Positions 48,919 to 53,066 of a DNA stretch of 64,000 nt are shown one piece after another. The stretch spans positions 62,815 through 126,814 of the forward strand of contig JAFPYR010000053.1 of the NCBI GenBank assembly GCA_017412115.1, in the 5' to 3' direction. The translations under genes were made by a program, and so were the position numbers. This DNA comes from Bacteroidales bacterium (GTDB taxonomy: Bacteria; Bacteroidota; Bacteroidia; Bacteroidales; UBA3824). The notes under the pieces are model-generated. The model did not search any database. It had not been told where the DNA came from and was given only the letters and a program-made list of their open reading frames with translations. Position 1 is the first letter of the stretch; each line of letters begins with the position of its first letter.

Positions 48919-50214
48919 ATGACAAAACAAACAATCGCAATAATTACCCTCGGTTGCAGCAAAAACCTTGTGGATTCCGAAGACCTTGCAACAAGGCTTT
49001 TTAACAATTATAATGTTCAGTACGATAACGCAGAAAACGCTGATATTGTGATAATTAACACTTGCGGATTTATCCTTGACGCTCAACAAGAAAGTATTGA
49101 CGAAATACTTTTTTATGCTAAGGAAAAAACCGAAGGCAGAATTTCAAAACTTTTTGTATTCGGCTGTTTGTCAGAACGTTATAAAAAAGAATTGGAAAAA
49201 GAAATACCTGAATGTGATGAGTTTTTCGGCGTTAATTCCTTGGATGAAATTCTTAATAAATTAGAAAGCAACAATCCTGTAAAAGATGTCGCCCGAATAA
49301 TTTCAACACCGAAACACACCGCTTACATAAAAGTTGCCGAAGGTTGCAACAGAATGTGTGCTTTTTGCGTAATTCCTTACATAAGAGGACGTTACGTATC
49401 AAGAAAAATCGAAGATATAGTTTCGGAAGTTAGAAAACTCGCTGAAAACGGCACAAAAGAGTTCAATCTCATCGCCCAAGATTTAAGTTATTACGGTTTT
49501 GACCTTTACGGAAAATACGCACTCCCCGATTTATTGAAACAACTTATTGAAATTGAAGGTGTTAAGTGGATTCGTCTGCATTACACTTATCCGAATAATT
49601 TTCCGTTGGAAGTTTTGAAATTGATGAAAAAAAGCGACAAAATATGCCGCTATTTAGACATTCCGATTCAGCACGTCTCTGACAAGATTTTAACAAAGAT
49701 GAAACGCGGACATTCTAAGGACGAGACTGTTGCATTAATCAAAAAATTCAGAGCAGAAATTCCCGATATTGCACTTAGAACCACGTTGTTAGTCGGTTTT
49801 CCGGGCGAAACGGACAAAGACTTTGCCGAACTTGAAGAGTTTGTAAAAGAGGCTCAATTTGACCGTTTAGGCGTTTTTCAATACTCGCCCGAAGAGGGAA
49901 CTTTTTCCGAGAAAAACTACCGCGACAACGTCTCAAAAAAGAAAAAACAAGAACGAGCCGATAGGATTATGCAAATTCAGCAGAAAATTTCGTTGGATTT
50001 GAATGTCAAAAAAATCGGAAAAGTTTTTGAAGTTTTAATTGACAGACAAGAGGGCGAATATTTTATCGGACGTACTCAATACGATTCGCCGGAGGTAGAT
50101 TGCGAAGTTTTAATAAAAATTTCTGAAGCAAAAGATTTAAAAATCGGAAATTTTTATTCAGTGCAAATCACTGATGCTGAGGAGTTTGACTTATATGGCA
50201 AACCAAATGAATAA
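48919..50214 (+). CDS. rimO: Ribosomal protein S12 methylthiotransferase
   Basis: UPF0004 N-terminus ITLGCSKNLVDSE. Radical-SAM CNRMCAFC. C-terminal TRAM domain. A TAatTTTG box lies about 30 nt upstream. Confidence 0.9.
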   Translation: MTKQTIAIITLGCSKNLVDSEDLATRLFNNYNVQYDNAENADIVIINTCGFILDAQQESIDEILFYAKEKTEGRISKLFVFGCLSERYKKELEKEIPECDEFFGVNSLDEILNKLESNNPVKDVARIISTPKHTAYIKVAEGCNRMCAFCVIPYIRGRYVSRKIEDIVSEVRKLAENGTKEFNLIAQDLSYYGFDLYGKYALPDLLKQLIEIEGVKWIRLHYTYPNNFPLEVLKLMKKSDKICRYLDIPIQHVSDKILTKMKRGHSKDETVALIKKFRAEIPDIALRTTLLVGFPGETDKDFAELEEFVKEAQFDRLGVFQYSPEEGTFSEKNYRDNVSKKKKQERADRIMQIQQKISLDLNVKKIGKVFEVLIDRQEGEYFIGRTQYDSPEVDCEVLIKISEAKDLKIGNFYSVQITDAEEFDLYGKPNE

Positions 50215-50233
50215 AAATGAACAAAATGAACGG
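50214..50233 (+). promoter_or_regulatory. Operator-like box AAAATGAACAAAATGAACGG (direct ATGAAC hexamers, 9-bp register), copy 1
   Basis: Identical 20-mer to 50478..50497. It sits about 24 nt upstream of a TAtcTTTG -7 box (50257-50264). Confidence 0.5.
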
Positions 50234-50256
50234 TGCATTTTTCGAGAAAATCGCTT

Positions 50257-50448
50257 TATCTTTGTATCAGCAATAACAGAAAAATGCAATCATTCAAACT
50301 ATTAATGGATTAAATAGTGAAACATTAAATTTTTTTTTCATTTGCAAGTCTTTTTATAATCAGTTTTTGTAAAATGCAAATGCAACCGTTTAATCAAATT
50401 AGAGACGAAGCCTCAGAATCCGAAAAGGTTCTGAGGTTTTTTATTTTT
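50257..50448 (+). ncRNA. Candidate small RNA A (promoter -7 box to intrinsic terminator)
   Basis: TAtcTTTG at 50257-50264. A 33-nt core at 50335-50367 is identical to 50650-50682. The terminator is cctcagaa / ttctgagg + T6 (50411-50442). No ORF of meaningful length is present. Confidence 0.4.
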
Positions 50449-50477
50449 AGAAAAATTCATTTTTTTTCACAAAAATT

Positions 50478-50497
50478 AAAATGAACAAAATGAACGG
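50478..50497 (+). promoter_or_regulatory. Operator-like box AAAATGAACAAAATGAACGG, copy 2
   Basis: Identical to 50214..50233. It sits about 23 nt upstream of a TAccTTTG -7 box (50520-50527). Confidence 0.5.
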
Positions 50498-50519
50498 AAC
50501 ATATTTGAAAAAAACTCCA

Positions 50520-50761
50520 TACCTTTGTAATGTGAAAATCAAAGATGCTTTGGTTTACACGCAGTACTTAAAATTGAACTAAAATACTTGAACTTATAAT
50601 TGATTTAATTGTTTTATTTGTTTTTTATTATTTTATTTTTACATTAATATTTTCATTTGCAAGTCTTTTTATAATCAGTTTTAGTACAAGTAATAACCTT
50701 TATCATATTTTACTCAATAAAAGCTCTTCGGAAGTTTCTTCCGAAGAGTTCTTTTTTTTTA
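50520..50761 (+). ncRNA. Candidate small RNA B (paralog of A)
   Basis: TAccTTTG at 50520-50527. The 33-nt conserved core is at 50650-50682. The terminator is ctcttcggaag / cttccgaagag plus a long T-run (50724-50761), which also abuts the stop of the convergent rluA-family gene. Confidence 0.4.
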
Positions 50762-51436
50762 TTTTAAATCTCCTTCAAAAAATTTCCAAAGTTTATCATT
50801 AGGAACTTCAGCCGTTACGGAGATTTCTTTTTTGCTGACGGGATGAATAAATTCCACTTTTCGTGCGTGCAGTGAAAGTCCACCGTCGGGATTTGAACGC
50901 GGATAACCGTATTTCAAATCGCCTTTTACGGGGCATCCGATATTTGCTAACTGACAACGTATCTGGTGATGACGGCCTGTCAAAAGGTTGATTTCCCAAA
51001 GATAATAACGGTCGGAAACCGAAAGAATTTTATAATTCAAAATTGCTTTTTTGGCTTCCTTGTCCGTTTCTTTGGCGATAAAACTTTTGTTTAGTTTTTC
51101 GTTTTTCTTTAAGAAATTCTCGAGAGTGCCTTCGTCTTCTTTCGGACGGTTAGAGGTGATTGCCCAATAAGTTTTGTGAATTCCACCATCGCGAAACATT
51201 GCATTGAGCCTTGACAAAGCCTTACTTGTCCGCGCAAAAATCACAATACCTGAGGTCGGACGGTCTAAACGGTGGGTTAAACCTAAAAAAACTTCACCGG
51301 GTTTATTGTACTTTTCTTTAATGTACTTTTTAACCTTGTCGATAAGGGTTTGATCGCCCGTTTTATCGCCCTGAACTATCTCATTCACGGTTTTCGAGAC
51401 GATTATAATATGATTGTCTTCGTAAATTACTTGCAT
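50759..51436 (-). CDS. RluA-family RNA pseudouridine synthase (no S4 domain)
   Basis: HRLDRPTSG catalytic Asp motif and GRHHQIRCQL motif. Confidence 0.85.
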   Translation of the reverse strand: MQVIYEDNHIIIVSKTVNEIVQGDKTGDQTLIDKVKKYIKEKYNKPGEVFLGLTHRLDRPTSGIVIFARTSKALSRLNAMFRDGGIHKTYWAITSNRPKEDEGTLENFLKKNEKLNKSFIAKETDKEAKKAILNYKILSVSDRYYLWEINLLTGRHHQIRCQLANIGCPVKGDLKYGYPRSNPDGGLSLHARKVEFIHPVSKKEISVTAEVPNDKLWKFFEGDLK

Positions 51437-51566: not shown

Positions 51567-53066
51567 CTAATCATCATGTTTGAAATAATCCAATATGTAT
51601 AACAAGTTGTCAGACTGCTGTTTAAGTTTATCAGAATTGGCTGCAACCTCTTCTGAAATCGAAGCGAAATGCTGTGTCGTGGTATTAAACCTCTGAACTG
51701 CCGTATTAATTTGGTCGCTGCCTGAGGCCTGCTCCTGACACGCCGCCGCAATTTCCTGAACCAAAGTCGTAGTACGTTGCATTTTAGGCAAAGCCTTTGC
51801 AAAAGCATCTCCGGTTTGAATTGCAACGGATTGACCGCCAGAACTTACAGAATCAATTTCTTTTGCTGCTAATGCACATCTCTCAGCAAGTTTTCTAACC
51901 TCAGCTGCAACAACGGCGAAACCCTTACCGTGTTCACCGGCGCGTGCAGCTTCAACGGCAGCGTTAAGTGCCAAAATATTCGTTTGAAATGCAATTTCGT
52001 CAATAATGCTAATTTTTTCTGCAATATCACGCATTGCCTTTGTAGATTTTTCAGCAGTAACACTATACGCTTGAATTGTCTGAGATGTTTCAACGGCAAT
52101 TTTTTGAGTCTCTTTGGCGTTATCGGAATTTTGCTGAATCGACGATGACATTTCCTCAATCGAAGAGCTGACTTCTTCGGCAGAGGCAGCCTGATCGTTT
52201 GCGGAATTACTCATTTGCTGACTTGCCCGATTCATCTCGGCACTTGTATCGGCAATCTCTGCCGCACAATTTTTAACCGAACTTACAATATTTCTCAAAT
52301 TATCAACAAGATCGGCTACGGCATTGTTGAGTACTGCAATTTCATCTTTATTATCCGAACGCATCGCTTTAATAGTCAAATCACCTTTGGCAAGATTAAC
52401 CGCATTTTTGATACCGGCTTTCAGCGGAATAACAGAACGCTTTCTAAAATCCCGAGACGCCATCAAATACATCAAAACGGAAATTAAAACGCCTATTATA
52501 ATTGTTATCAGACATGATTCCGTATTTTTAGCGAGAGCCTTCGAGGTGTTTTTAATAACTCCTGCCGCAGAGGTCTGAAGTGTTGCCGCCGAAACAGAAA
52601 TTTTTTCACGCAAAGCCGCTAATTCGGAAATATTACTTTCTCCGTTTGCCTGCAAATTAGCATTAACAATGGATAAAAACCTTTCAAACCCCTCCTTACA
52701 AGTTTTATAATCGGTTTGAATGGCCTCTTCCATATCACTGCCAATAAACTCAGATAAAGCATCTAATTTTGTCTGAGCCTTACGACAATTTTCCGAAGCG
52801 GCATTACGGTTTTCAATTTGTCTTGTCTGAGCATACAGTGTAATGTGTTTGTTTGCAGCATTAACGTCAATAACCATAGCGTCAGCCGTCTGCATGACAT
52901 CAACATATTTGTCGGTGAGTTTGTTGGCAAAATCGTCGGCACTTTTTACTTTTACTAATACAATTAAAAGTGTAATCAAAAGCGGAAGCGACACCACCAA
53001 AACTCCCAATGAAACGTTAAACGACAAAGATGCATTTCGTAATTGTTTGTCTAAAATAAAAGCCAT
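51567..53066 (-). CDS. Methyl-accepting chemotaxis protein (TM, 4HB-like sensor, TM, HAMP, short MCP signalling domain)
   Basis: The highly conserved hairpin-tip sequence [39 protein letters not shown] is present. There are two TM helices. No che genes are in the window. Confidence 0.9.

Follow-up and report, generated by a model that had tools for sequence, protein, structure and literature searches.

Two probable paralogous small RNA genes with a common upstream box and a U-rich core downstream of rimO in a clade of gut and rumen Bacteroidales

Little is known about the regulatory RNAs of the Bacteroidota, and nearly all of it comes from Bacteroides thetaiotaomicron and a few relatives. To our knowledge, this phylum has no Hfq, no ProQ, and no translation initiation based on Shine-Dalgarno sequences. 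Adjacent paralogous small RNAs (sRNAs) that share a regulator site are represented by PrrF1/PrrF2 of Pseudomonas, with a Fur box, and by OmrA/OmrB of E. coli, with OmpR. The closest described systems within the Bacteroidales are FopS-10 and GibS of B. thetaiotaomicron, which block translation by pairing beside the start codon of mRNAs that lack a Shine-Dalgarno sequence (PMC11697453), and SrcF of Segatella copri, an RNA of ~270 nt that is restricted to its genus (bioRxiv 10.1101/2024.04.05.588293). Here, we analyzed a 64,000-nt stretch of a contig from a metagenome-assembled genome (MAG) of Bacteroidales (UBA3824), hereafter "the window," to which all copy counts for the host refer. Between rimO and a convergent RluA-family pseudouridine synthase gene in this window there are very probably two paralogous small non-coding RNA genes, designated units A and B, each composed of an upstream box, a -7 promoter motif, a U-rich core, and an intrinsic terminator. 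The whole explanation, to which we assign a probability of roughly 60%, is that the two sRNA genes are transcribed independently, that their box is bound by a regulator, and that the core serves as the working surface of the RNA, likely as a seed for mRNAs. The elements of the two units are as follows; "16-nt box" refers to AAATGAACAAAATGAA, the part of the 20-nt box that is common to all relatives with such units.

50214–50233, plus strand: box A, AAAATGAACAAAATGAACGG, in which AAAATGAAC is directly repeated; spans about -57 to -38 relative to the predicted start; putative regulator (activator/operator) site
50257–50264, plus strand: -7 promoter motif of unit A, TATCTTTG, of the form TAnnTTTG, 42 nt after the 16-nt box; predicted start near 50271
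50271–50446, plus strand: predicted sRNA A, ~172–176 nt, without a conserved open reading frame (ORF)
50335–50367, plus strand: core A, 33 nt, the same as core B; the 18-mer AAGTCTTTTTATAATCAG is at 50346–50363
50407–50446, plus strand only: predicted intrinsic terminator A, with a hairpin at 50407–50440 (14 pairs, 5 of them G-C) and then a T-run; dG -16.7
50447–50477, no strand: spacer from unit A to unit B, apparently unconstrained
50478–50497, plus strand: box B, an exact duplicate of box A (AAAATGAACAAAATGAACGG)
50520–50527, plus strand: -7 promoter motif of unit B, TACCTTTG, 41 nt after the 16-nt box; predicted start near 50534
50534–50760, plus strand: predicted sRNA B, ~227 nt, with a T/G-rich tract at ~50609–50645
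50650–50682, plus strand: core B, the same 33-mer; the invariant 18-mer is at 50661–50678
50722–50760, both strands: predicted terminator B, with a hairpin at 50722–50750 (13 pairs, 6 of them G-C) and a T-run at 50752–50760; dG -18.9; common to the convergent RluA-family gene

The box, the TAnnTTTG motifs, the 33-nt core, and both terminators had been pointed out in an earlier note on this DNA, and all of them were recovered at the same positions. That note interpreted the two promoter-to-terminator modules as candidate paralogous sRNAs, and this interpretation is now supported by synteny, fixed spacing, the core, the absence of a conserved ORF, and sequence constraint. The transcript lengths that it gave were ~175 and 230 nt; those predicted here from motif-based starts are ~172–176 and ~227 nt. 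With up to three mismatches allowed, the box 20-mer and the core 33-mer TTTTCATTTGCAAGTCTTTTTATAATCAGTTTT each matched the window only twice; the expectation for the core was 0.00, and none of 100 dinucleotide-preserving shuffles gave two or more matches to the box or two matches to the core. A repeat finder extended the similarity between the units to 41 nt (83%) at the box and to 40 nt (95%) at the core, and a profile search with the core block, in which all filters were switched off, returned only the two known copies, with 51.3 and 40.6 bits (next best, 9.0 bits). The sequence between the blocks has diverged, as previously described: the 5' parts of RNAs A and B are 39% identical, compared with 34 ± 6% for shuffled sequence.

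Two tandem copies, together with a copy number that ranges from one to three among relatives, would also be seen if the blocks were fragments of a dispersed repeat or miniature inverted-repeat transposable element (MITE), or the product of a neutral, recent tandem duplication, but the probability of either is close to negligible. In every genome seen, the units are confined to a single syntenic locus, and they are therefore not MITE fragments, the alternative that the earlier note had raised against its own proposal. No further copies were found in the 64 kb, even by profile search, or outside rimO contexts in ~220 other loci, and the repeat finder detected no flanking inverted repeats at the locus. 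The core 17-mer had 48 matches in viral contigs, none with any flank similarity, indicating that these are chance occurrences of an A/T-rich word. Furthermore, the copies are saturated with change outside the blocks and yet frozen with respect to their relatives, which is the opposite of what a young neutral duplication would produce.

The distribution of the units among relatives was established from a rimO scan over one genome per GTDB species, which returned 76 loci (handles beginning with L designate loci and contigs outside the window); the rimO of the closest representative had 95% identity. The exact rimO protein was found on three ENA metagenome contigs that are 99.9–100% identical to the window. 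The closest relatives are MAGs from the guts of goat, sheep, yak, and horse, with rimO identities of 68–95%. In 12 of the 14 species representatives in which rimO is at least 68% identical and downstream sequence is present, the same architecture occurs directly after rimO, namely, AAATGAACAAAATGAA, TAnnTTTG 40–42 nt further on, an A/T-rich stretch, AAGTCTTTTTATAATCAG, and a hairpin with a T-run; it is absent after rimO in the other two (L012 and L020). Neither box nor core was found in ~35 more distant Bacteroidota rimO loci (identity ≤57%), with five mismatches allowed. Metagenome contigs provided further examples (L091, L095, L118, L121, L130, L137, L157, and L120), and 25 distinct units were obtained overall, always just downstream of rimO. 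Most species carry one unit, whereas the window, L007, L010, and L091 carry two, and L120 carries three. At L120 (240–2520), the three tandem units lie between rimO, which has its own terminator there, and rluA, and a 171-amino-acid membrane-like ORF on the minus strand (weak DUF4271 match) separates units 2 and 3; this locus shows growth by duplication, with insertions tolerated. Taken across the relatives, the copy numbers show repeated tandem duplication and loss. The gene 3' of the units is convergent and differs between species (rluA, aldose epimerase, or UDP-glucose dehydrogenase), and therefore the units are not leaders of the downstream gene. The family is very probably undescribed and restricted to a single clade of Bacteroidales from the gut and rumen.

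An alignment of the window with L091, which represents a different species-level lineage, showed where the locus is constrained. The 544-nt spacer between rimO and the RluA-family gene is 98.2% identical (10 substitutions), compared with 91.9% for rimO at the nucleotide level, 77.8% at the four-fold sites of rimO, and 92.8% for rluA. RNA A (176 nt) contains no substitutions, whereas the four-fold-site rate predicts ~39 and the rimO rate ~14. Four of the 10 substitutions fall within 50448–50468, a 21-nt segment located past terminator A and before box B; two are in the promoter spacer of unit A, and one is at an "n" position of the -7 motif of unit B. RNA B has three substitutions and two alignment breaks (50559 and 50734/50735). 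Over this short distance, the whole of the predicted RNAs is constrained, and the constraint is relaxed exactly in the presumed non-functional spacer. Over long distances, conservation is limited to the box, the -7 motif, the core, and the occurrence of a predicted terminator. The earlier note had attributed the pattern of conserved and diverged blocks to selection on an operator and an RNA core, and the comparison bears this out: the box is invariant, the core is almost so, and the purifying selection far exceeds that on the flanking genes.

All 25 units carry the 16-nt box without a single change. TAnnTTTG, the -7 element of the primary sigma factor of Bacteroidota (sigma-ABfr) (PMC7366714), is present in 24 of them (TACTTATG in L019) and always starts 40–42 nt after the box, and the intervening 24–26 nt cannot be aligned between lineages. 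When the start sites were placed ~7 nt downstream of the motif, the box was positioned at about -57 to -41. Only 2 of the 106 TAnnTTTG sites in the window carry a box at that offset (16 of 16 positions), and the remaining 104 match it at 10 of 16 positions or fewer, as at a control offset. A generic UP-type upstream element was ruled out as an account of the box because so few TAnnTTTG sites carry it. A Fur box, an IHF site, and a dif site were considered by eye for the box or the core, and none of them fits. The box is thus a specific site, putatively that of a sequence-specific regulator. On an unrelated metagenome contig (L097, ~913–968), four consecutive 9-mers, AAATGAAC, AAAGTGAAC, TAAATGAAC, and AAAATGAAT, stand upstream of a TAnnTTTG motif, which suggests that the box's repeat unit can form longer arrays.

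Box A directly adjoins the stop codon of rimO, and in most relatives the box likewise abuts or overlaps it; in the window, moreover, rimO has no terminator of its own ahead of unit A. Because sRNAs derived from 3' untranslated regions (UTRs) exist in Bacteroides, such as FopS-14 (PMC11697453), the blocks might be elements of the rimO 3' UTR that act in termination, processing, or stability, with no promoter of their own and with an sRNA released only by processing. We regard this as improbable, because unit B and units 1–3 of L120 keep the box and the -7 motif downstream of a terminator, because rimO in L120 is self-terminated and another gene stands between units 2 and 3, because the 40–42 nt spacing from box to TAnnTTTG is kept over spacers that cannot be aligned, and because this box and promoter are also found together at loci that lack rimO. 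The relationship of the box to rimO is itself variable: the box abuts the end of rimO, overlaps it, or sits inside it, and the frames differ (L004, L005/L011, and L006). Since its position and frame relative to rimO vary, and since it also occurs away from rimO, as in unit B and the L120 units, the box is conserved as DNA and not as a peptide.

The same evidence bears on the possibility that the box begins a short translated ORF (MNKMN...) for a leader peptide or micro-protein. The box does read ATG AAC AAA ATG AAC in an A-rich context, and public gene calls include a 33-amino-acid ORF at 50481–50582 on the plus strand, starting from an ATG in box B (equivalent to L001 11338–11439 and L002 4449–4550); in addition, the ORFs of all four units of group G3, a group of box-driven units at another locus described below, are 16 amino acids long. 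However, the ORFs that start in the box range from 6 to 36 amino acids with nothing conserved after MNKMN, they do not keep a constant frame with respect to the -7 motif (41 versus 42 nt, depending on the unit), the box of L011 lies inside the rimO coding frame, and the sequence upstream of the box has no conserved promoter motif. Translation from the box is thus very improbable, and the 33-amino-acid call is probably spurious.

The predicted RNAs of the 25 units range from 148 to 315 nt. No conserved ORF runs through the units, since indels in the T-runs break every frame across the core; the minus-strand ORFs that start with ATG and pass through the core are 3–15 amino acids long, and their frame is broken by the same indels. 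A cmscan against Rfam 15 at the gathering score gave no match in the window or in 10 related loci, in keeping with the earlier note, which had recognized no RNA family. At E ≤ 10, the region 50100–50900 yielded no FopS, GibS, or 6S entry, and the sub-threshold matches were terminator look-alikes (His_leader and similar) with 25 bits at most. The 18-mer AAGTCTTTTTATAATCAG is unchanged in 21 of the 25 units. Its variants are ATGATCA in L004, L008, L009, and L121, and a diverged 3' half in L006 and L095. The 33-nt identity between cores A and B that was first noted therefore holds for this pair, but the part that is invariant across the family comprises only 18 nt. A T-run of variable length stands before the core and YTTTTT after it, and two sub-types are distinguishable immediately 5' of it, one with TTCATTTGC and the other with an A/T-rich sequence ending in TTAG. 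An internal promoter just 5' of the core, TTCATTTG, was considered; it is a one-mismatch -7 motif in one sub-type but is absent from the sub-type of L011 and L013–L019, and was not adopted. The T/G-rich tract of unit B is also present in single-copy units of relatives (L004, L006, L008, and L009). The distance from the core to the 3' end is 46–123 nt (mean 93, SD 16), and that from the predicted start to the core is 57–192 nt (SD 35). The 5' part ahead of the core is A/U-rich, evolves quickly, and varies in length.

Neither a consensus structure nor a helix around the core emerged when the 25 units were aligned and folded with RNAalifold. A helix formed by CAUUUGCA and UGCAAAUG around core A was rejected as a family-wide feature, being shared solely with the orthologue L120_1001. 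Pairing between the core and the 5' region of the same RNA was no better than in shuffled sequence (z from -1.9 to +1.1). In unit B, the segment 50564–50592 (GUACUUAAAAUUGAACUAAAAUACUUG) is imperfectly complementary to 50657–50687 (-13.5 kcal/mol, z from -1.6 to -1.9), and this possible self-sequestration of the core is kept in the close relatives L010 and L091. As a feature of the family, such an anti-core, in which the 5' part would sequester the core, was discarded, as it is seen in unit B but not in other lineages. The accessibility of the core is thus a prediction only, drawn from the absence of a consensus helix and of a systematic anti-core. The fold z-scores relative to shuffles (-3.26 for RNA A and -3.43 for RNA B) are largely owed to the terminators. 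A plus-strand terminator with a hairpin and T-run is predicted in all 25 units, with dG values from -7.5 to -22.3 kcal/mol, and at least nine unrelated stem sequences occur among them. The internal terminators, that is, those of unit A and of L120 units 1 and 2, act on the plus strand only, because they have no upstream A-run. In the 1 kb around the locus there are four terminator-like sites, compared with 0.5 expected.

The terminators are also informative about whether the blocks act only as DNA, as sites for a regulator, nucleoid protein, or recombinase, with any transcript being incidental. The box is almost certainly a site at the DNA level, and the core has no conserved secondary structure, both of which such an explanation would accommodate. 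It would not account for the maintenance of a strand-specific promoter and terminators despite complete turnover of the terminator sequences, or for constraint that spans the whole of predicted RNA A and relaxes exactly in the spacer between the units; moreover, the core is non-palindromic and resembles no site that we can name. A role in DNA alone is accordingly a highly improbable account of the locus.

JGI metagenomes were scanned for the box followed by TAnnTTTG 22–28 nt later, and 91 stretches were obtained, about a third of which are coding or low-complexity chance matches (for example, MNKMKK signal peptides). Two further groups of units, G3 and G4, have the same box and promoter with a gap of 25–26 nt, then 183–336 nt of A/T-rich sequence, and their own terminator. 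They contain no conserved ORF (one 16-amino-acid ORF in L114 is not shared), they have no match in Rfam, and the gene after them has its own promoter. The G3 units (224–258 nt; L106 8216–8560, L129 1688–2000, L154 8387–8720, and L155 12353–12680, in oriented loci outside the window) lie directly after rlmN (TIGR00048, 369 bits) and before an ArsP_1 permease gene, and repeat the pattern of the rimO-linked units, with a variable, A-rich 5' half and a conserved 3' block of ~100 nt. The G4 units (183–336 nt; L114 2999–3240, L132 648–900, and L127 3794–4200, in oriented loci) precede a polyprenyl synthetase gene, in L114 directly after metG, and the three have only short blocks in common. The 18-nt core is absent from both groups. 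Both carry T/G-rich tracts resembling that of unit B, and the 14-mer TTTTTATTGTTTTA is common to G3 and L004/L008/L009. The box thus remains an element of the paralogous units in which it was first noted, but it is not private to them, as it also heads non-coding units elsewhere.

The box and promoter also stand ahead of a few other genes. On nine contigs from human-gut and other metagenomes (L083, L102, L104, L108, L119, L124, L126, L134, and L152), the 16-nt box with TAnnTTTG 25 nt later is located ~30 nt upstream of a GmrSD_N (DUF262) restriction-type gene. These apparently represent one orthologous locus, which may be a single chance occurrence or a use of the box beyond the rumen clade. 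Overall, the box looks like a cis element that serves several promoters, which mostly drive non-coding RNAs, on the evidence of a few independent loci outside the window. That box-driven RNAs stand behind genes of the translation apparatus (rimO, rlmN, and metG) was seen at three loci only and could be chance. It is conceivable, though on balance doubtful, that the 16-bp box of AAAATGAAC marks a transcription-factor regulon of mostly non-coding RNAs, unrelated in sequence and situated behind translation genes, which would couple ribosome and tRNA modification or growth state to post-transcriptional control; the RNAs of such a regulon might act on a protein of the translation machinery.

Action on a protein is also the essence of another explanation, in which the RNAs are real but bind protein, the U-rich core and the T/G tract of B-type units forming a platform or sponge for an RbpB-like protein with an RNA recognition motif or for ribosomal protein S1. 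RbpB of Bacteroides, which binds sRNAs sequence-specifically and is involved in titration by or against sRNAs (PMC11697453), is a precedent for this. The core lies in a long, unstructured, U-rich context with flanking U-runs, tracts similar to (U4-5 G)n occur in the B-type, G3, and G4 units, no mRNA target was found within the 64-kb window, and the position of box-driven RNAs behind rimO, rlmN, and metG would suit a partner in translation. This gene-neighborhood link, however, comes from the three loci already mentioned, and base pairing with a fixed partner would explain the exact invariance of the 18-mer at least equally well. We consider protein binding as the main function to be unlikely, although it is the main rival.

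In the explanation that we favor, namely, two independently transcribed sRNA genes, a regulator at the box would switch RNAs A and B on or off, and the same regulator would probably also control the other non-coding RNAs that carry the box elsewhere. A direct repeat with a 9-bp period near -50, combined with a promoter without a -33 element, suggests an activator. The U-rich core, predicted to be accessible, would be the working surface of the RNA. By analogy with FopS and GibS, its seed would pair with A-rich translation-initiation regions of mRNAs and block initiation, perhaps after processing of the RNA to a 3' fragment of ~95–100 nt with the core at its 5' end; a fragment of this size as the active species is hinted at because the distance from the core to the 3' end is stable. 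Each half of the 33-mer is complementary to sequences of the kind found around start codons: the reverse complement of UUUUCAU reads AUGAAAA, and UCUUUUUAU pairs with AUAAAAAGA, or with AUGAAAAGA via one G-U pair. As a hint of pairing, this complementarity is suggestive only.

Several points weigh against this explanation. The start sites are placed by motif positions, and transcription itself is a prediction. The canonical -33 TTTG is absent from the 24–26 nt spacers of the units; only unit B has a TTTG in its spacer, 12 nt upstream of the -7 motif. The -33 element is frequently missing in Bacteroidota: it is found at 15% of S. copri start sites, and in F. johnsoniae it was undetected (PMC7366714). 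A literature search on the box sequence and on promoter motifs of Bacteroides sRNAs found no description of the box. When the core was compared with the initiation regions of 56 ORFs in the window, the best interaction was -14 kcal/mol (mean -9.6, SD 2.7), with no outlier, and a duplex scan of both strands of the window with 34 nt of the core revealed nothing beyond the antisense strand of the core itself. Because rimO lacks its own terminator, RNA A could derive partly or wholly from rimO read-through and processing. In FopS and GibS, the seed is at the 5' end of RNAs of ~65–145 nt, whereas the core here is internal and the RNA is longer. Finally, recent recombination could partly account for the identity with L091; it would nevertheless not explain where the few changes are placed.

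The genes on either side of the units were identified as follows.

48919–50214, plus strand: rimO, 30S ribosomal protein S12 methylthiotransferase, with Pfam domains UPF0004, Radical_SAM, and TRAM_2
50759–51436, minus strand: RluA-family pseudouridine synthase gene, with Pfam domain PseudoU_synth_2, the convergent downstream neighbor of unit B

The product of rimO scores 480.6 bits against the NCBIfam RimO equivalog TIGR01125 (cutoff, 357), whereas the best NCBIfam match of the RluA-family gene, rluA_subfam, reaches 148.5 bits and remains under its cutoff of 192.7. The RluA-family gene is adjoined by a gene for a 499-amino-acid protein with an MCPsignal (methyl-accepting chemotaxis) domain (51567–53066, minus strand). 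Chemoreceptors are uncommon in Bacteroidales.

The units add a well-delimited and strongly constrained candidate sRNA family from uncultured rumen and hind-gut Bacteroidales, and they offer a natural series of one, two, and three tandem paralogues. A box shared with other non-coding RNAs is a rare handle on a transcription factor and an sRNA regulon in this phylum; if true, the box regulon would be a dedicated circuit from factor to sRNA. The practical impact is moderate, given that the host is uncultured and that the type of mechanism is not new.

Compared with PrrF1/PrrF2 and OmrA/OmrB, the units have the same arrangement of a regulator site (here putative), a promoter, and a terminator for each gene, with conservation concentrated in the operator and the seed. 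They differ in belonging to another phylum without Hfq, and in that the box is a direct repeat with a 9-bp period at about -57 to -41 and not an operator that overlaps the promoter. With SrcF of S. copri, compared by its description (bioRxiv 10.1101/2024.04.05.588293), they share the character of intergenic, syntenic Bacteroidales RNAs with a terminal stem-loop. The likeness to FopS and GibS (PMC11697453, PMC7366714) extends to the order Bacteroidales, to multi-copy paralogous sRNA genes, to the canonical TAnnTTTG promoter of the primary sigma factor (as in FopS), and to a conserved unstructured seed, here the predicted core, followed by an intrinsic terminator; control by a transcription factor has likewise been postulated for FopS and GibS. 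The RNAs described here show no sequence or covariance-model similarity to FopS or GibS (Rfam negative). FopS RNAs are ~65–70 nt with the seed at the very 5' end, and their copies are dispersed over the genome, whereas the present RNAs are 2–4 times longer, have the core ~95 nt from the 3' end, and are encoded in tandem at one syntenic locus; a fixed upstream box of this sort has not been described for FopS. No new kind of mechanism is indicated by this comparison, and we rate RNAs A and B, as predicted from these sequence features, as an undescribed sRNA family that is distinct from FopS and GibS.

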